Below are positions 56,564-64,000 of a DNA stretch of 64,000 bases, in pieces. The notes below the pieces were generated by a model. That model was given only the letters and a program-made list of their open reading frames with translations, was not told the origin of the DNA and did no database searches. A program made the position numbers and the translations under genes. The stretch comes from an uncultured Candidatus Binatia bacterium. GTDB lineage: Bacteria; Desulfobacterota; Binatia; Bin18. The stretch lies in NCBI GenBank assembly GCA_965203745.1, contig CBDBDK010000001.1, forward strand, positions 1,955,328 through 2,019,327. Reading direction: 5' to 3'. Position 1 is the first letter of the stretch. Every line of letters starts with the position of its first letter.

Positions 56564-57679
56564 TTACTGCGTCTCGTGCGTGGCCTGCCAGGCGCGGCCC
56601 ATCGAGTCCGCGGCCAGAATGGCGTCGGCAACCATGTCGGGCTGCACGTCAAACGGCTCGTTATGGATGGTTTCGCCTTCGGCGGTCGCCCGCGTTGCTA
56701 CTTGTTCAAGCACGTCCTCAGGGAGCTCGGTGAGCCCGATCTCGGTCAGGGTGATAGGCAGGCCGACCGCGGATGAAAACTCCAGCACCGGATCGATAAC
56801 CGAGCGTGGCTGCCCTTCGAGCACCAACTGGGCCATCAGGCCGTAGGCGACTTTTTCCCCGTGATAATACGGGTGGGTGAGCGGGGCTGCGGTGAGGCCA
56901 TTGTGAATGGCATGGGCTGCGGCAAGACCCGAGGACTCGAAGCCTAAACCCGACAGCAGGGTGTTGGCTTCGACCACCCGCTCCAGGGCAGGATTGACAA
57001 CATTTCGTTCCACGGCCCGTTTGGCATCCGGGCCGTCTTCAACCAGGATATTGCAGCACAGCTCTGCCAGCTTTTCGGCGCTGCGCGTTGAGGCTCCACC
57101 ACGCATATTCTGGACGTGGCCGGCAACACAGGTTTTAGCCTCGAACCACGTAGCCAGCGCATCTCCCATCCCTGCCACAAGCAGTCTGGCCGGAGCTTGG
57201 GCGACGACATAGGTGTCCACAACAACCAAATCAGGGTTTTTTCGATAAAAGCGATATTCCTGGAACACTCCCTCGGGGGTATAGATCACCGACAGCGCGC
57301 TGCACGGTGCGTCGCTTGAAGCAATGCTTGGACAGTTAACGACGGGAAGGTCGAGGTCGTCCGCCGCTGCACGGGCCGCATCCAATACCTTACCGCCGCC
57401 CGCTCCAATAATAACCTGAGCCTTATTCTCCCGTGCTGTTTCTTTGATACGTTGGATTTCGGGATAGGAGCATTCCCCTCCGAACTGGTGGACGACGTGG
57501 GTGATGCCGGCATCGTTCAAATGTTTCTGCCAGACTTCTGAGAGCAGCCGAATGGCACTTTTCCCGGCAACGATACAGGCAGGCCCCTGTAGACCGATGC
57601 GCTGCATTTCCGTTCCTAGGGCTGCGGTGGCGTGTTTCCCCTGTACATAGTGGCTTGGGGCTGAAAAAACTGAGAGCAT
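56564..57679 (-). CDS. iron-containing alcohol dehydrogenase family (glycerol dehydrogenase GldA-like)
   Basis: GGGKVLD (GGGS-type) NAD motif and the metal-ligand region of group III ADH/GldA. 371 aa. Confidence 0.8.
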   Translation of the reverse strand: MLSVFSAPSHYVQGKHATAALGTEMQRIGLQGPACIVAGKSAIRLLSEVWQKHLNDAGITHVVHQFGGECSYPEIQRIKETARENKAQVIIGAGGGKVLDAARAAADDLDLPVVNCPSIASSDAPCSALSVIYTPEGVFQEYRFYRKNPDLVVVDTYVVAQAPARLLVAGMGDALATWFEAKTCVAGHVQNMRGGASTRSAEKLAELCCNILVEDGPDAKRAVERNVVNPALERVVEANTLLSGLGFESSGLAAAHAIHNGLTAAPLTHPYYHGEKVAYGLMAQLVLEGQPRSVIDPVLEFSSAVGLPITLTEIGLTELPEDVLEQVATRATAEGETIHNEPFDVQPDMVADAILAADSMGRAWQATHETQ

Positions 57680-57839
57680 ACATCCCTCCTTACCAAGTGC
57701 TGTTCCCGCAGATAGAGCAGGGTGAGAGCTTTTGCAGTATAAACTGAGACGTGTTGACGCGGCAAGCAGGAGAGGGCCAGTGGGACAAGCGGAAGACGCT
57801 ACGGTTCGGCAGAGAACGCTGCTTCTCTCAATCTCATCC

Positions 57840-57862
57840 GATATATCAGGTTCGGATATATC
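57840..57862. repeat. two copies of the palindrome GATATATC 15 bp apart, upstream of an extended -10 (TGCTATAAT 57882-57890)
   Basis: GATATATC at 57840-57847 and 57855-57862. TATAAT at 57885-57890 lies 7 nt before the ATG at 57898. Confidence 0.5.
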
Positions 57863-57897
57863 TTCCCGCTTTTGGTTCGAGTGCTATAATTGCCGCC

Positions 57898-59847
57898 ATG
57901 GCACGTACCCCTAGCGACCTTCCCGAAAATAAGGACGAAAGGGAAATTTTCTATCTACTGAAAGGGCGCTTGGACGACGAGTGGGTCTTCTGGCATGAAC
58001 CGGACCTGAAACGCTCCTACGACGACTCCAATCCCTATCGCCCGGACTTCATCCTGCTGCATCCCAGACGCGGGCTGTTTGTGCTGGAGGTCAAAGGATG
58101 GAATGCCTCCAGTATCCTGGACGTCAAGAAGAAGCAGCCTGATGACTTCGATAAAGGCAAGCAGATCGACAAGGTGCTGTACAAATTCGGCACCGGCGAC
58201 GAATGGGTTACCGCCCCTTTTGACCAGTTGAGGAATTACACCAGTTGGGTCAGGAATAGGTTGAAAGAACTGCCCCAGGTTAGCGGCAAGAAGGCCAACA
58301 AGCTGTTCAAGGGGGCGGTGTGTTTCGTACGGATTGCCAAAGACGATATCAGCGCAGGCGACCTTCTCAACTCCCATCTGGGTGAGTTACGCAAGGGCGT
58401 CCTGACCGGTAAGAGGAAGAGCGAGCAGGGATACTACGAGGGGGATTACCGACGCTGGAGAGCGCATCCCAACGAACTGCAACAAAGTCTTGCTGCCTCG
58501 CCGGATGAAGACCTACAACTCGATAAAATCTACGTCCAGATTCGGCAGATCATCCATCCAGAGTCCGTCATATCGATATTCTCTCCATCAGAGGCCGACA
58601 AGACAGACTCCAGCGAGCAGCGCCCGGAACCGGCAAGCTGTGTAGAGACGGATACCGAACCCCTCCCATGCATTCTTGACCTAGACCAGGAAGAAGTAGC
58701 CAAGGGGCACATCGGTCGAGGGCATCGTATTCTTTTCGGCGTCGCCGGTTCCGGTAAGACCGTAATCCTGATCGCCCGCGCCCGTTATCAGGCAATGCGT
58801 CACCCGGAACAGCAAATCCTTGTGCTGTGCTATAACAGGACGCTTTTCTGCTACATTGACGATGTCCTGAAGGCTCACCCGAACATTGACGTAAACACTT
58901 TTCATTCTTGGGCTCAGTCCGAATTCTCGAACTATTGGGACTTCACCGAAGACGAACGCGACAAGAATCTGCTGATACATCTGGAGCGGAAAGGGGTCAA
59001 GAAACAGTACGACTGTATCCTGATCGATGAATCCCAGGACTGGGATATCGCTTGGTTCAAGGCGATTCTGCATGCGGCCAAAGATGCGGAGGAGGGGGAT
59101 ATGCTGATCGTCGGCGATGGCAGCCAGTCCATCTACGCCAGGCAGCAGGGCTTTACCTGGAAGGCTTGTGGCATCAAGGCCAGGGGGCGGGTGATCAATC
59201 GTCGAGGCGGCAAAGTCGATACCTTCAGGAACTATCGTAACACGCCCGAAATCGTCGCACTGGCCACTTCCTTCGCCCAAGGTCTCATCTCGCAAAAGAA
59301 CACTACCTCCGAGGACGGTATGATGTCCCTATTGCCCGAGGCGAAGGACTGCGGCAAGCGGCCGAGCCACATTCTGCCGGTTATCTGCCGAGCCAAGAGC
59401 GAAGGGACCGAACTGGCCCTCGTCCATAAAGAAATACGGCACCTCCTAGAAAAGAAGCTGGTGACCCGACGCAGTGACATCGCCGTCATTTACCCTCGTG
59501 GTGACCGTGGGAAACGGCAGGACACACTGCGTAAGTTGACCAACGACCTGAACCGGCTTTACCGGACGGACTGGATCAGAGGAGGCCGGGTGAGGAATCA
59601 AGATAAAATACTAGTTGACACCATCAAAATATCCAATGTCTATCAAATCAAGGGACTGGAGTTTAAGGTGTGCTTCGTGGTCTTGGCAAACGATTTCTAC
59701 GACGAAGAGGGAGAACTTCTGTATGTGGCCTTGACCCGAGCCCAGGAGCGTCTCTACGTGACCCATCATAGGGACACGTTCCTGACTGGGAAACTGACTT
59801 CCGATATGACCCTCTATACGGATCAATTTCTTTTCTCTATGGCTTGA
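57898..59847 (+). CDS. NERD-domain (PD-(D/E)xK nuclease) / UvrD-like SF1 helicase fusion protein (Nhi-like candidate defence protein)
   Basis: NERD motif RPDFILLHPRRGLFVLEVKGW at the N-terminus. SF1 motifs follow: I GVAGSGKT, II IDESQD, III VGDGSQSIY, V KGLEFKVCFVV, VI VALTRAQERLYV. Confidence 0.75.
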   Translation: MARTPSDLPENKDEREIFYLLKGRLDDEWVFWHEPDLKRSYDDSNPYRPDFILLHPRRGLFVLEVKGWNASSILDVKKKQPDDFDKGKQIDKVLYKFGTGDEWVTAPFDQLRNYTSWVRNRLKELPQVSGKKANKLFKGAVCFVRIAKDDISAGDLLNSHLGELRKGVLTGKRKSEQGYYEGDYRRWRAHPNELQQSLAASPDEDLQLDKIYVQIRQIIHPESVISIFSPSEADKTDSSEQRPEPASCVETDTEPLPCILDLDQEEVAKGHIGRGHRILFGVAGSGKTVILIARARYQAMRHPEQQILVLCYNRTLFCYIDDVLKAHPNIDVNTFHSWAQSEFSNYWDFTEDERDKNLLIHLERKGVKKQYDCILIDESQDWDIAWFKAILHAAKDAEEGDMLIVGDGSQSIYARQQGFTWKACGIKARGRVINRRGGKVDTFRNYRNTPEIVALATSFAQGLISQKNTTSEDGMMSLLPEAKDCGKRPSHILPVICRAKSEGTELALVHKEIRHLLEKKLVTRRSDIAVIYPRGDRGKRQDTLRKLTNDLNRLYRTDWIRGGRVRNQDKILVDTIKISNVYQIKGLEFKVCFVVLANDFYDEEGELLYVALTRAQERLYVTHHRDTFLTGKLTSDMTLYTDQFLFSMA

Positions 59848-59974
59848 GATTGAATAGCAGCCCGCACTCGCTTCAGTGTGGACTCCCGATCTCCGTCCTC
59901 AATGGTCGGAAGCCGCGAGAGAAAGAGGGGGCAGGGGTCAGGGTGGAGAGACCCTAGCTTGCGTGCACTATACT

Positions 59975-60826
59975 ATGCGTCGGTTCCAAGGCTATGTGCT
60001 TTGTGGTGTTGTCCTGACTCTCTGGGCCGCAGGGTGTTCTGAATGGCCGGGTGAACCACCGAAGTTGAGCCAGCACGAATATAGCCATGTCCTCAGCACT
60101 GGGCCGTGCCCGCTCGGTGAGCGGAGCGGTCCGGGAGGTATGAGCGACGACGAGCAGACTGAACACGGGATTAAATATACGGTTCGGACGCCCGCCAACT
60201 ACAATCTAGGCATTCTTCACCCGCTCCTCATGGTCTATGCCCCTGCCGGCTCCAGTCGTTTTCGATCCGAGCATCTGACCGACCTGACTTTTGCGGCAAC
60301 GACGGCTGGCTTTGTCGTTGCCTATGCTGACTCACGCCGCCTTTCGCTCGAAGTCATTCTCGAACTCGGGACGATCCCGCGGCTTATTGCCAAAAAATGG
60401 TGCGTTGATGAGCGGCGGGTCTACCTGACCGGCCATTCTGACGGCGGAACAGTGGCCCTCGCTCTGGCCCTGTTGGACGAGACCCGCCACATCCCGGCTG
60501 CGGTGGCGCCAAGTGCCGCCGGGTTCAGGCGGGCCGACCTCGAAACCTTCTCGTGTCCCGAAACATTGTCTGCTCTGATTATGCACAGTGCCAACGACCA
60601 TCTTTTCCCCGGCTACGGGGCCGAGACGGCTTCTTGGTTGGCTGCGTGTAATCAGTGTCAGGCCGGTTTGATTGAGAAAGATAAAAATGGCTGTGGGGCC
60701 TACTCGGGATGCACAGCGCAAGGCAAAACTCTATACTGCGAAGGAACTGGTACCCATCGGCAGTGGCCTCCGCTCAATACGGCCCTCCTGTCGTTTTTTA
60801 TCGATATTGACCGCTCCCTTCACTAA
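59975..60826 (+). CDS. putative esterase, PHB-depolymerase (LpqC-like) alpha/beta-hydrolase family, lipoprotein-type signal
   Basis: The signal ends LWAAGC. Nucleophile elbow LTGHSDGG. ~280 aa. Confidence 0.5.
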   Translation: MRRFQGYVLCGVVLTLWAAGCSEWPGEPPKLSQHEYSHVLSTGPCPLGERSGPGGMSDDEQTEHGIKYTVRTPANYNLGILHPLLMVYAPAGSSRFRSEHLTDLTFAATTAGFVVAYADSRRLSLEVILELGTIPRLIAKKWCVDERRVYLTGHSDGGTVALALALLDETRHIPAAVAPSAAGFRRADLETFSCPETLSALIMHSANDHLFPGYGAETASWLAACNQCQAGLIEKDKNGCGAYSGCTAQGKTLYCEGTGTHRQWPPLNTALLSFFIDIDRSLH

Positions 60827-60916: not shown

Positions 60917-61489
60917 ATGAGACGAGCCCGCCGAATCTCCTCTCTTCTCGCTGTTGTAGCGACGCTTTGCCTAGTGCTTCCCGTGTCATCCTGGGCACAT
61001 CGGGACAGAGGTCCCGGAGACCCATGCCGACGGGAGGTCGGGGCTTCGCTCTTGCATATTACGTTTTATCAAACGCAATTTGACCCGGTCACGGAGTATT
61101 GTGAAGAAATCCCGCGTGTGGGGAACGCCTTCCTGGTCGTGGACGTGACGCCCGATCTGTGGGAAATGCCGTTCGGTGTTGAACTCGTTGCTGCAGATGA
61201 ATCCGGACAGTCGAGTACGATCCTGTCCCTGCCTTTCCAAGTATATGAACGTGGCGTGGCCAACACTGAGGTTGTCGTGAAAGCGGGACTGCGCTACGAA
61301 GTGCGTGTCCTACTCGGGCTTGCGGAGGAACGCGAACCGCGCAAATTTTCATTTCCCTTTCAGGTTGCCGCATGGTATAAGGCCTTAGTCGGACCGGCGC
61401 TGATTGCCCTCGGGGTGGTTATCGTTCTTGCAGTCTCGGTGATTCGTTATAGGCTCACTGATCAGAGTAGAGAAGAACTGGCGAAATAA
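60917..61489 (+). CDS. hypothetical secreted protein with C-terminal TM anchor, immediately upstream of CuMMO operon (PmoD/CopC-like candidate)
   Basis: Signal peptide ends SSWA|H, so mature residue 1 would be His. Cys/His/Met-containing periplasmic domain. C-terminal helix ALVGPALIALGVVIVLAVSVI. Confidence 0.4.
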   Translation: MRRARRISSLLAVVATLCLVLPVSSWAHRDRGPGDPCRREVGASLLHITFYQTQFDPVTEYCEEIPRVGNAFLVVDVTPDLWEMPFGVELVAADESGQSSTILSLPFQVYERGVANTEVVVKAGLRYEVRVLLGLAEEREPRKFSFPFQVAAWYKALVGPALIALGVVIVLAVSVIRYRLTDQSREELAK

Positions 61490-61539
61490 AGAGAGAGAGT
61501 ATACAGTAGCATCGTTATTACTATCGAGGAGGGATAAGC

Positions 61540-62388
61540 ATGGCTCAGGCGCAAGCAGTACAAAATGCACCAAAAGGTTCCGGCGATGGTTCCATGACAA
61601 CTGGCAATCCCGCCAATCCGACTGATTGGTCAGTCGGCTGGCATCCTCTCTTCTGGGGGTGCGGGCTGATCATGCTGGCGAATGTCTTTTTCTGGTACTG
61701 GAACTACGCCTTTATGTTCACTGCCGGACTGAACTCAGCAAGCGCTGAATTCACGATGTATTACTGGACGCTGTTCTGGGGTGAATTGATTGTCTTAGGC
61801 GTATTCAGCGGAGTATGGTTGGGCTGGCTCATCCGGAATGGCCGGGCCATTCAAGGACAGGAATGCTCACCCGCCGAAGAAACGCGCCGGATTGCGATTT
61901 TGTGGAGCCTCGTTGGCGCGACGAGTCTGGCTATCTATCTGATGGCCAGCTTCTGGCCGAACTGGGATGGGTCGTGGCACCAAACCATGGTTCGTGACAC
62001 GGCATTCACCCCGACCCACATCCCGATGTTTTATTTTTTCTTCCCCCTCTCGGTTGTGTTGGCCGTCGGGACCTATATCTACGGGCGGTTCCATATCCCC
62101 GCGCTGTACGGAAAAGACAAGGGATTTCCCTGGTCGTTCTTTCTGCTGATCAGCGCCTGTGTACTCGAATGCATGGCAGTCGCTGCCAATGAGTGGGGCC
62201 ATAGCCTGTGGATATCTGAAGAAATCTTCTCTGTTCCGTTTCACTGGCCGTTTGTGATTTACGGCTGGCTTGCGGCGGGTATGTTTGCGGTGTGGGGCGA
62301 GACGCTAGTGCGCATGTTCGAGATAGAGAAGATCGAAGAGGATACCAACCCGGAAGCCTCGCTTGAGTCGCCGATCGCCGCCGATTAA
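61540..62388 (+). CDS. xmoC: copper membrane monooxygenase subunit C (PmoC/AmoC family)
   Basis: Matches PmoC/AmoC conserved blocks: SWHQTMVRDTAFTPTHI (cf. GTWHQTIVRDTDFTPSHI), NEWGHSLWISEEIF (cf. NEWGHTFWFMEELF), VPFHWPFVIYGW. GAGGAGG RBS. Confidence 0.85.
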   Translation: MAQAQAVQNAPKGSGDGSMTTGNPANPTDWSVGWHPLFWGCGLIMLANVFFWYWNYAFMFTAGLNSASAEFTMYYWTLFWGELIVLGVFSGVWLGWLIRNGRAIQGQECSPAEETRRIAILWSLVGATSLAIYLMASFWPNWDGSWHQTMVRDTAFTPTHIPMFYFFFPLSVVLAVGTYIYGRFHIPALYGKDKGFPWSFFLLISACVLECMAVAANEWGHSLWISEEIFSVPFHWPFVIYGWLAAGMFAVWGETLVRMFEIEKIEEDTNPEASLESPIAAD

Positions 62389-62451
62389 TGCAGCGGCGTG
62401 GGCGTGGATCGCTAAACATATCGAAAATCCTCGTGCAGAGAGGAAGGACGC

Positions 62452-63255
62452 ATGGCGACGGAAACCACCACCGTAACCGACATCGCAGATGCGGCGGAAC
62501 GGCAGAGGCGGCTTGAACTCAAAGAACTGCTCAACAAGAAATATAAGTGGGTTGATTGGAAGTGGGATCTTGTTTTCTGGACCACGGCAGTTTTCGTGGT
62601 AGCCGGTGCCGCTGACATCACCAAGCAGTTGTTTGCCGGTGACTGGGATTTCTGGACGGATTGGAAAGACCCACAGTGGTGGCCAGTAGTCACGGCCTTT
62701 GCCACCATCATCATCCCCTCGACGCTGCAATACATTCAGTGGACGGCTTGGCGCTTTCCGACTGGTGCGACCTACACCGCGTGTTGTTTGTTTTTTGCGG
62801 CCTGGGTTGGGCGGTATTTCCAGTGGGACCTCGCGGCGACCTACCCTATGAACTTCGTGTGGCCTGCCTCCGTCGTTTGCGCCGGGATTTTGATGGACTG
62901 GACCTTAATGAAAACCAAGAGCTTCATCCTCACCTCGTTGATCGGGGCTCATGTGTGGGCGATTGCGGTGTGGGCCTATAATTACGTTCCCTTGGCTGCC
63001 TTTCTCCAGCCGGCCCATTTTATGGATCATGTGGTGACGGTTGCTGATGTTCAGGGCATTGCCTATATCCGCTCTCAAACCCCGGAATACCTTCGGCTGA
63101 TTGAACGCGGCGCGTTGCGGAGTTTCCTGGGTGAGACGCAATACGTTTCGCTGGCCTTTGGCGGAACGGCGGCTTTTGCTGGCTACTGGATCGGTCAATT
63201 TATTGGCCGGTATCTGGCAGTGTGGCCGATTCGGCGCTATCTGAAAACTGTATGA
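62452..63255 (+). CDS. xmoA: copper membrane monooxygenase subunit A (PmoA/AmoA family)
   Basis: AGDWDFWTDWKDPQWWPVVT (cf. AmoA [20 protein letters not shown]). Also FPTGAT, YPMNFVWP, LMDWTL, QTPEYLRLIERGALRSF. Confidence 0.9.
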   Translation: MATETTTVTDIADAAERQRRLELKELLNKKYKWVDWKWDLVFWTTAVFVVAGAADITKQLFAGDWDFWTDWKDPQWWPVVTAFATIIIPSTLQYIQWTAWRFPTGATYTACCLFFAAWVGRYFQWDLAATYPMNFVWPASVVCAGILMDWTLMKTKSFILTSLIGAHVWAIAVWAYNYVPLAAFLQPAHFMDHVVTVADVQGIAYIRSQTPEYLRLIERGALRSFLGETQYVSLAFGGTAAFAGYWIGQFIGRYLAVWPIRRYLKTV

Positions 63256-63274
63256 GACGAATATGAGGTGCGGT

Positions 63275-63616
63275 ATGTCTTTCGAACCTCAGCAGCTCGC
63301 CGGATACGGAAGAGTCTGCTCTGTGCTCATGGCTCTTCTTGCCGGCCTGTCTCTGTTTCCTTCCCCCGTGTATGCGCACGGTATGAATATCTCTGAAATA
63401 GCCCCGCCCGTCATGACCGCAGGCGTTTTGGCGTTTGTGTGTTACTGGCTGGTGGTTTTGTGGCCGGCGTCGAAGGGTGTGGAGACGGACGGACGCGGAT
63501 CGCCGGAAACGGACCGGATTATTCGCATCAAGCGCAAGCCCCGCCTGCGCGTCATAGAAACCAAGTCTCAGCTCCCGGACGAACAGCCCGAACCCAGGAG
63601 AGCGGCGGATGGCTAA
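63275..63616 (+). CDS. small membrane protein encoded between CuMMO A and B subunit genes
   Basis: Signal peptide ends VYA|HG. One TM helix (VMTAGVLAFVCYWLVVLWPA). Basic/Pro-rich C-terminal tail. An alternative start is at 63263. Confidence 0.4.
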   Translation: MSFEPQQLAGYGRVCSVLMALLAGLSLFPSPVYAHGMNISEIAPPVMTAGVLAFVCYWLVVLWPASKGVETDGRGSPETDRIIRIKRKPRLRVIETKSQLPDEQPEPRRAADG

Positions 63617-63626
63617 GCGATTCGTG

Positions 63627-64000
63627 ACTGGCAGTGAAAGAGTAAGCGTGTCCTCCAATAGATATAAGATGCTGGGCACGTTTACTCTTTTTGGCGTGCT
63701 ATTCGTACTGGCCGTTGTTGCTGCCAATACGCCGCACGCCTTTGCTCACGGTGAGGCTGCCGACGAACCGTTTTTGAAAAACATGACCACGGCTTTCTTC
63801 AATGTCAGCGTGTCGCCGACTGAAATTGAGGTTGGAGAGCCGGTCAAGGTTACGGGGTCGGTCAAGATTCTCGAAACCTGGCCGCATACGCTGGAAACAC
63901 CGGAAATCGCTTCTATTATGCCGGTCGTTCCCGGACCAGTCTTTGTGCTCAAAGAGCGTTTTGTCAATGGAACGGCTGCGATCGGATCGTTCTTTGCCCA
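63627..64000 (+). CDS. xmoB: copper membrane monooxygenase subunit B (PmoB/AmoB family), 5' part (runs off window)
   Basis: Signal peptide ends AFA|HGEAADEPFL (cf. PmoB mature N-terminus HGEKSQAAF). WPHTLETPE and PGPVFVLKERFVNG (cf. PGPVFIRKESYIGG). Open to the window end. Confidence 0.75.

Follow-up and report, generated by a model that had tools for sequence, protein, structure and literature searches.

The last 3 kb of the window, the 64-kb stretch of DNA analysed here, carry on the + strand the start of an operon for a copper membrane monooxygenase (CuMMO), which comprises the open reading frame (ORF) ORF190, a pmoC-like gene, a pmoA-like gene, a small ORF and a pmoB-like gene that is truncated by the window end. 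The operon belongs to a Candidatus Binatia (Binatota) bacterium. Three of the precursors, those of ORF190, the small ORF and PmoB, carry a Sec-type signal peptide that ends in a -3/-1 site immediately before a histidine, and a fourth histidine-first protein, the second PmoD paralog PmoD2 (…AWG/HGGV, the slash here and below marking the predicted cleavage site), is encoded just past the window end. The operon was read beyond that point on L001, a near-identical contig with 98-100% protein identity to the window. The gene order is esterase, PmoD1 (ORF190), pmoC, pmoA, small gene and pmoB, followed on near-identical contigs by PmoD2, a multicopper oxidase, a cupredoxin-like protein and a pyrroloquinoline quinone (PQQ) alcohol dehydrogenase. 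Orthologs were collected by a scan with one genome per species, which gave 47 loci titled almost entirely as Candidatus Binatia, Binatota or 'Deltaproteobacteria' metagenome-assembled genomes (MAGs), and a second set consisted of 45 metagenome contigs, mostly from soil. The order PmoD1-C-A-small-B is held in every one of the genome loci that reaches that far. The features of the window are as follows.

60917..61489, + strand: ORF190, a PmoD-family protein ('PmoD1') of the Cx9HxnC class by sequence, with signal peptide, beta-sandwich periplasmic domain and C-terminal transmembrane (TM) anchor
60917..60997, + strand: predicted Sec signal peptide of ORF190 (MRRARRISSLLAVVATLCLVLPVSSWA; residues 1-27), with n-, h- and c-regions and S-W-A at -3..-1
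60998..61000, + strand: His28 codon, predicted mature N-terminus of ORF190, motif HRDRGPxDxC, invariant in 49/49 across the genome loci
61382..61450, + strand: C-terminal TM anchor of ORF190, residues 156-178, hydrophobic stretch ALVGPALIALGVVIVLAVSVIRY
61540..62388, + strand: pmoC-like gene, CuMMO subunit C (Pfam AmoC, 1.2e-42)
62452..63255, + strand: pmoA-like gene, CuMMO subunit A (Pfam AMO, 1.2e-52)
63263 (or 63275)..63616, + strand: small gene between pmoA and pmoB, 117/113-aa precursor, mature protein ~79 aa
63377..63379, + strand: His39 codon, predicted mature N-terminus of the small protein, HG(G)M…E..PP, A/H invariant in 90/90
63404..63466, + strand: TM helix of the small protein (PPVMTAGVLAFVCYWLVVLWP), best 19-residue window, median hydropathy 1.98
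63609..64000, + strand, running off the window end: pmoB-like gene, CuMMO subunit B, first 130 codons (Pfam Monooxygenase_B, 2e-16)
63747..63749, + strand: His47 codon, predicted mature N-terminus of PmoB and CuB histidine-brace residue, aligned with M. capsulatus His33

Histidine directly behind the signal peptide

The three junctions read …PVSSWA/HRDRGP in ORF190 (His28 codon 60998-61000), …PSPVYA/HGMNIS in the small ORF (His39 codon 63377-63379) and …PHAFA/HGEAAD in PmoB (His47 codon 63747-63749). Cleavage sites were ranked with a purpose-written, crude scorer of n-, h- and c-regions plus the -3/-1 positions, for which some background ORFs are false positives; its top site lies directly before the His in all three precursors, and the scores of 8.0, 8.4 and 9.4 are among the highest in the window. 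A His at +1 was found in 0/18 of the other signal-peptide-like ORFs of the window and in 0/34 non-operon signal-peptide-like protein families from ~1 Mb of fetched Binatia DNA. Comparison of the orthologs from the 47 species-level genomes gives [A/G]/HR(D/F/N)xGP in 49/49 proteins of the ORF190 type and A/HGEA in 44/44 PmoB proteins, while the small protein reads A/H(G) in 45/45 genome loci and in 45/45 metagenome loci; none of these orthologs lacks the His. In the orthologs of all three, position -1 is always A, G or S and position -3 is small or aliphatic. Across the genomes and metagenome contigs the signal peptides drift while the His stays invariant, the mean fraction of the commonest residue being 0.41 over -20..-4 and 0.92 over +1..+10 in ORF190, and 0.42 and 0.97 over the same ranges in PmoB. 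Given the invariance over ~90 loci and the 0/34 background families with His at +1, chance is excluded and the shared His-first pattern is real. The first-pass annotation of this DNA had claimed three signal peptides ending directly before a His, a histidine brace in PmoB and two accessory ORFs that are not random; the junctions stand in the sequence as it described them, both accessory ORFs are conserved genes in the genome and metagenome loci, and the PmoB site is borne out by homology, as set out below.

In five deposited structures of particulate methane monooxygenase (pMMO) or ammonia monooxygenase (AMO), the mature chain begins at the residue that aligns with His47 of PmoB. The window PmoB ends at residue 130; the full-length L001 protein, of 436 aa and 98% identical, matches solved PmoB at 1e-55, and its HxH partner, GDWHVH, aligns with His137 and His139. 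By homology PmoB thus holds the complete CuB ligand set of N-terminal His plus HxH, a textbook case, and the conservation of His33, His137 and His139 in Binatota PmoB was reported by Murphy et al. 2021 (PMC8262859). The CuC (D..H..H) and CuD (N..H..H) ligand motifs of PmoC likewise align with those of solved PmoC. The C, A and B genes are therefore those of a CuMMO by their AmoC, AMO and Monooxygenase_B domains and by their CuB, CuC and CuD ligands. The NCBIfam scores for AmoA, AmoB and AmoC are all well under the equivalog cut-offs (193 bits for the pmoA product against AmoA_BACT, where the cut-off is 290 bits), which indicates a divergent clade whose substrate cannot be assigned from sequence.

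The PmoB presequence in the window is 46 residues long (MAKRFVTGSERVSVSSNRYKMLGTF…; 63609-63746), as compared with 25-29 in most orthologs. The ATG overlapping the small-ORF stop is the conserved start; with an internal ATG the signal peptide would have a normal length of 26 residues.

ORF190 and the PmoD family

ORF190 has the architecture that defines PmoD in Fisher et al. 2018 (PMC6189053), namely a signal peptide, a periplasmic domain and a single C-terminal TM helix, and is similar to the solved PmoD domain in both sequence and fold. An AlphaFold 2 (AF2) model places beta-strands between residues 38 and 150 and a helix at 153-189; the cysteines C37 and C62, kept without exception in 32 homologs, line up with Cys41 and Cys65 of 6CPD. 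The gene lies immediately upstream of pmoC in 47/47 genome loci. Judged by these alignments and the predicted fold, ORF190 is a PmoD-family protein. Scans of Pfam and NCBIfam assigned no family to ORF190, the small ORF or PmoD2, and PmoD appears to have no model in either library; the family profiles of CopC (PF04234), PCuAC and YcnI gave no match.

The mature periplasmic domain of ORF190 contains His only at positions 28 and 47 and Cys only at 37 and 62, all of them invariant, and has no conserved Met. H28 and H47 are moreover the sole His residues of the whole protein, which narrows the possible copper ligands to these four side chains plus the alpha-amine. The motif is Cx9HxnC, with Leu45 at the position of Met49 (F, I or V in relatives). 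A CuA-type PmoD identity was considered and rejected on this ground, Leu being found where the CuA ligand Met49 sits, though His47 is present; no CuA site is expected in ORF190, which lacks an equivalent of Met49. In the study of Fisher et al. 2018 (PMC6189053) the CuA site is confined to Cx7MxHxnC proteins, and Cx9HxnC proteins, 22% of the PmoD family, bind copper without CuA spectra, one of them, MettrDRAFT_0370, binding ~1.4 Cu equivalents.

A second paralog follows the monooxygenase genes:

L001:11767-12252, directly after pmoB: PmoD2, 161 aa as called, identified by BLASTP to ORF190 (5e-16)

The signal peptide of PmoD2 lies upstream of the called start. PmoD2 is present in 30/47 genome loci, is again a Cx9HxnC protein with Leu at the Met49 position, and reads …AWG/HGGVAMDLDPC in 30/30 loci. 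Murphy et al. 2021 (PMC8262859) had reported pmoD in 5/11 Binatota genomes. As read from these alignments, the N-terminal His of ORF190 and of PmoD2 is a candidate copper ligand.

The N-terminal His of ORF190 is not peculiar to the Binatia locus. It is a feature of the PmoD family as a whole and has already been tabulated: Supplementary Data 2 of Fisher et al. (PMC6189053) gives a column, 'H1', to a His that precedes C1 and, in its first ~35 rows, which were sampled here, H1 is His in N. europaea AmoD and AmoE, Nitrosococcus AmoD, MCA2130 and MettrDRAFT_0370 and Ala in the alpha-proteobacterial in-operon PmoD. This column most likely describes the same position as His28 of ORF190. A PmoD profile search of 1.84 billion cluster representatives returned 437 relatives, and among the best 150, which were examined, 119 span the full length and have Cys1 in the alignment. 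In 110/119 of these by a strict rule and in 115/119 by eye, a His comes directly after the signal peptide, 9-11 residues before Cys1, with Gly at +2 in 87/110 of those scored strictly. Hence ~95% of the scored PmoD-like representatives are His-first, and the crystallised Methylocystis PmoD is not. One representative, P0223, whose C1, M and H2 neighbourhoods (MCK, YTM, MHF) are identical to those of N. europaea AmoD NE2060, reads …VLHA/HGGLSMADDMCK, whereas the full-length Methylocystis PmoD (P0246) is predicted to mature as SRA/EGGAGPEAMSMGNMC (SRA/EGGAGPEAM…) and has no His there.

The constructs used in earlier work bear on this position. The first residue of the 6CPD chain is Ser36 (SMGNMC), which lies nine residues beyond the predicted mature N-terminus. 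According to Fisher et al. (PMC6189053), the recombinant PmoD domains carried N-terminal tags cleavable by tobacco etch virus (TEV) protease, and proteomics found PmoD domains but not their signal peptides; the main text of that study never treats H1 as a mature N-terminus, and its 'N-terminal histidine' is the canonical His of the CuA motif. In the searchable library no paper was found that links 'histidine brace' with PmoD. In such tagged constructs an N-terminal-amine copper site of H1-containing homologs, if there is one, would probably be unable to form.

The small protein encoded between pmoA and pmoB

A small gene lies between the A and B genes in every locus of the clade that reaches that far, in 45 genome loci and 45 metagenome loci. 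Its start is 7 nt past the pmoA stop in most loci and its end overlaps the pmoB ATG by 8 nt in 43/46 loci (63607-63616 in the window, ATGGCTAA); this conserved spacing and overlap point to translational coupling of the small gene with pmoB across the clade and to matched stoichiometry. The A/H junction is kept in orthologs down to ~35% identity. The mature protein (median 79 aa) consists of ~10 periplasmic residues that start with His-Gly, one TM helix and a basic cytoplasmic tail, and the median net charge of +4 on the C-terminal side and -1 on the N-terminal side indicates an N-out/C-in topology. Residues conserved in at least 90% of 45 orthologs are H1, G2, an acidic residue near +7, PP, T, YW, L, WP and a cytoplasmic R.K..PR..L motif.

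Library scans found no Pfam or NCBIfam relative of this protein, and nothing in the PDB, all chains included, matched a profile of 21 homologs at E values up to 10. The first-pass annotation had taken both accessory proteins as PmoD- or CopC-like. This stands for ORF190, as a member of the PmoD family, and fails for the small ORF, for which such an identity is ruled out by its periplasmic part of ~10 residues, its one TM helix and its basic cytoplasmic tail. By its sequence the small protein is instead a clade-specific, predicted N-out single-pass membrane protein without a known family, and it resembles a supernumerary membrane subunit more than it does a soluble chaperone. Two layouts of the Binatota CuMMO operon, 'CAB' and 'CAxB' with x standing for a hypothetical protein, were given by Murphy et al. 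2021 (PMC8262859); the small protein corresponds to this uncharacterised 'x' and is, from its sequence features, a candidate for a fourth, copper-related component of the enzyme.

Divergent N-termini of the small protein (HGGMGPDEIGPP; e.g. L033 and L042) share with the PmoD2 types an H-G-G-hydrophobic-x-x-acidic pattern. The PmoD2-type starts are HGGVAMDLDPC (L001:11740-11800) and, in the wider family, HGGLSMDKD; PmoB of the window starts HGEAADEP. The shared H-G-G pattern may be a common copper-binding or copper-loading motif, or may reflect convergence.

Proposed copper binding, genomic setting and known systems

The four His-first proteins can be brought together in a single scheme. PmoB, PmoD1, PmoD2 and the small protein would leave through the Sec pathway and lose their presequences to signal peptidase I right at the invariant His, so that residue 1 of each mature protein would offer both a free alpha-amine and an imidazole, as a histidine-brace copper site chemically requires. 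In PmoB this is, by homology, the CuB brace. In PmoD1 and PmoD2 the amine and imidazole of His1, together with His47 ('H2') and possibly Cys37 and Cys62, would most likely form a mononuclear Cu site, and a dinuclear CuA site of the Methylocystis PmoD kind would not be expected, the required Met being Leu. The small protein would most likely be a stoichiometric, N-out single-pass partner of the enzyme, translationally coupled with PmoB, whose His1-Gly2 tip at the periplasmic membrane surface may hand copper to the membrane-embedded sites or complete a shared copper site; alone it would provide a bidentate half-site, and a full site would need ligands from PmoB, PmoC, PmoA or PmoD. The neighbourhood is rich in copper proteins: it holds a multicopper oxidase, both PmoDs and, beside the PQQ dehydrogenase, a cupredoxin-like protein whose N-terminus is rich in His. 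A copper role is the most economical reading of it, not a proof. Taken as a whole, from His-first export and the PmoB brace to mononuclear Cu sites in the PmoDs and a copper-related membrane partner, this scheme is considered fairly probable.

Several observations weigh against it. In a minority of PmoD-type orthologs the scorer prefers a site two residues upstream (…SS/WAH), a site that also satisfies the -3/-1 rule in the PmoD paralogs, and the N-terminal segment of the AF2 model of ORF190 is less confident, with an average predicted local distance difference test (pLDDT) score of 56 over residues 21-30. Glu takes the place of His at the mature N-terminus of the crystallised in-operon PmoD from Methylocystis, which indicates that PmoD function does not universally need His1. 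In the small protein, some orthologs have V, A, I or F instead of the common Met at +3/+4, and the periplasmic tip is variable apart from His1-Gly2 and one acidic residue. Furthermore, the mature small protein has no second conserved His, so that a complete brace is impossible for it alone and ligands from other subunits would be needed.

It is possible that the N-terminal His of ORF190, of the small protein or of both is kept for a role other than copper binding, such as a structural hydrogen bond, docking to PmoB or PmoC, ligation of a metal other than copper, or serving an assembly factor as a recognition mark. The Glu start of the functional Methylocystis PmoD and the lack of any further invariant N- or S-donor in the tip of the small protein fit such a role. 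However, this is unlikely given that the operon is centred on copper (the CuMMO, two PmoDs, the multicopper oxidase and the cupredoxin-like protein), that copper binding in vitro is known for PmoD homologs of this motif class, that a His-Gly start is also found in the copper-binding PmoB and in many lytic polysaccharide monooxygenases (LPMOs), and that H28, H47, C37 and C62 are the only invariant candidate donors of ORF190. A different objection concerns the small protein, which, if left uncleaved, would fold as a hairpin of two helices whose short periplasmic loop holds the conserved Ala-His-Gly, and would have neither a free amine nor a brace, although its His could still act as a ligand or serve the structure. 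In its AF2 model the precursor has helices at 9-31 and 43-74 joined by a short loop, followed by a disordered tail, and only ~10 residues separate the cleavage site from the next helix, both of which agree with a hairpin. The model is, however, of low confidence (pLDDT 58), the first segment resembles a signal peptide in its positive n-region, h-region of 12-15 residues, Pro/Ser c-region and A at -1 in 90/90, it drifts freely whereas the second helix is strongly conserved, and the scorer ranks the site among the best in the window; retention of the segment is thus quite unlikely.

Cleavage of the PmoD-type proteins two residues earlier (…SS/WAH…, …GA/WGH…) would produce an NH2-X-X-His Cu(II) site of the amino-terminal copper and nickel (ATCUN) type. 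The scorer does put Trp at +1 in 9/46 PmoD1 and 9/28 PmoD2 orthologs, and Trp is frequent at -2 (36/49 PmoD1 and 28/30 PmoD2). Nevertheless, the Ala or Gly at -1 before the His is nearly invariant (A in 47/49), position -3 is V or T in 8/49 PmoD1 orthologs and would serve poorly as -1 of the upstream site, the two residues before the His vary freely across the family (AEA, ALA, GA, SA…) as fits a c-region and not a metal motif, and PmoB of the same architecture is known to start at its His, all of which make the earlier cut very improbable. As to a coincidence of three unrelated signal peptides, or a small ORF that is not a gene, short ORFs can arise by chance, but the invariance over ~90 loci down to 35% identity, the fixed position, the translational coupling and the 0/34 background rule this out to the point where its probability is negligible.

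The copper-binding scheme can also be taken further, with the small protein as a true fourth subunit that gives an inter-subunit histidine brace and H1 as the physiological mononuclear Cu site of most PmoD, AmoD and AmoE proteins. This extension is speculative and somewhat unlikely. Such a brace between subunits would be unlike any solved pMMO or AMO, and the H1 copper site could have been overlooked because the recombinant domains were N-terminally tagged or shortened.

Beyond PmoD2 the near-identical contig carries three further genes:

L001:12310-16535, downstream of PmoD2: multicopper oxidase, cupredoxin-like protein and PQQ dehydrogenase

The multicopper oxidase (564 aa) is membrane-anchored; the cupredoxin-like protein (242 aa) combines an N-terminal stretch rich in His (HESHHHHAHHGM) with a type-1-like HCDVSQHMEKGM motif and a TM helix at the C-terminus; and the PQQ dehydrogenase is of the methanol/ethanol family (TIGR03075, 596 bits). 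Together they suggest that electrons from alcohol oxidation return to the monooxygenase along a copper-based path. On the other side of the operon, directly 5' of ORF190, is an alpha/beta-hydrolase gene (59876-60826, +) with weak AXE1 and PHA-depolymerase-type matches and a lipoprotein-like signal (…LWAAG/C), whose position is kept in sponge-type and several other loci. Between an Fe-alcohol dehydrogenase gene (56564-57679, -) and this esterase lies a NERD-domain/UvrD-like helicase gene (57751-59847, +, a 698-aa ORF) that is present in the window and in L003 and missing at the equivalent spot in L002, and is thus a strain-variable insertion beside the operon. Six loci with the Binatia-type CuMMO operon (L027, L029, L034, L041, L043 and L045) come from MAGs titled 'uncultured Enterobacteriaceae' or 'Klebsiella pneumoniae', which are almost certainly taxonomic mislabels in public records.

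Part of this picture is already known: the PmoB site is textbook and had been noted for Binatota, and the PmoD assignment is a routine family placement. What is new is that the 'x' of CAxB is a conserved His-first single-pass membrane protein with a predicted signal peptide, translationally coupled to PmoB, that four proteins of one CuMMO operon share the His-first design, and that this design, absent from the crystallised PmoD, is found in ~95% of the scored PmoD-like representatives. The copper supply and arrangement of the monooxygenases that oxidise methane, ammonia and short alkanes, and the extra proteins that accompany them, are still disputed, and the ~90 operons offer a clean comparative set in which four exported proteins around one CuMMO keep His first. 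Should the small protein prove to be a subunit or a factor that loads copper, this would explain in part why the CuMMO clade of Binatia, soil and sponges differs from pMMO and AMO. It would be an easy target for heterologous expression, peptide chemistry and cryo-electron microscopy (cryo-EM), and the N-terminal His found across PmoD, AmoD and AmoE is a concrete reason to re-examine these proteins with native N-termini.

Small additional TM subunits are known from other CuMMOs. The available part of PMC13058606 describes the archaeal AmoX/Y/Z and an extra helix in cryo-EM structures of pMMO and AMO in native membranes, which in Methylocystis was attributed to an ORF of 23 residues and in AMO of the Nitrosomonas lineage to a small helical protein. 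Like these, the Binatia small protein has a single helix and is genetically tied to the core subunits; its profile showed no sequence similarity at E up to 10 to any chain of the solved pMMO and AMO entries. Its predicted cleavable signal peptide and His-Gly start set it apart further, neither being described for other small subunits in that part of PMC13058606.

Compared with PmoD, AmoD and AmoE (6CPD from Methylocystis sp. Rockwell; Fisher et al. 2018, PMC6189053), ORF190 has Leu at the Met49 position and belongs to the Cx9HxnC class. Its predicted mature start is a His with the clade-specific RDRGPxDxC, where Methylocystis PmoD starts EGGAGPEAMSMGNMC, and its gene lies upstream of pmoC and not after pmoB. 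In PmoB the CuB site (AFA/HGE and GDWHVH) aligns residue for residue with His33, His137 and His139 of M. capsulatus pMMO and is not materially different from that of known pMMO and AMO, whereas the CuMMO itself forms a divergent clade. Histidine-brace copper sites are also present in other periplasmic proteins, CopC, PCuAC, YcnI and the LPMOs, and many LPMOs begin with His-Gly at the mature N-terminus. The likeness to this wider group lies in the predicted cleavage directly before His and in the beta-sandwich domain, and a C-terminal membrane anchor is common to YcnI and PmoD.

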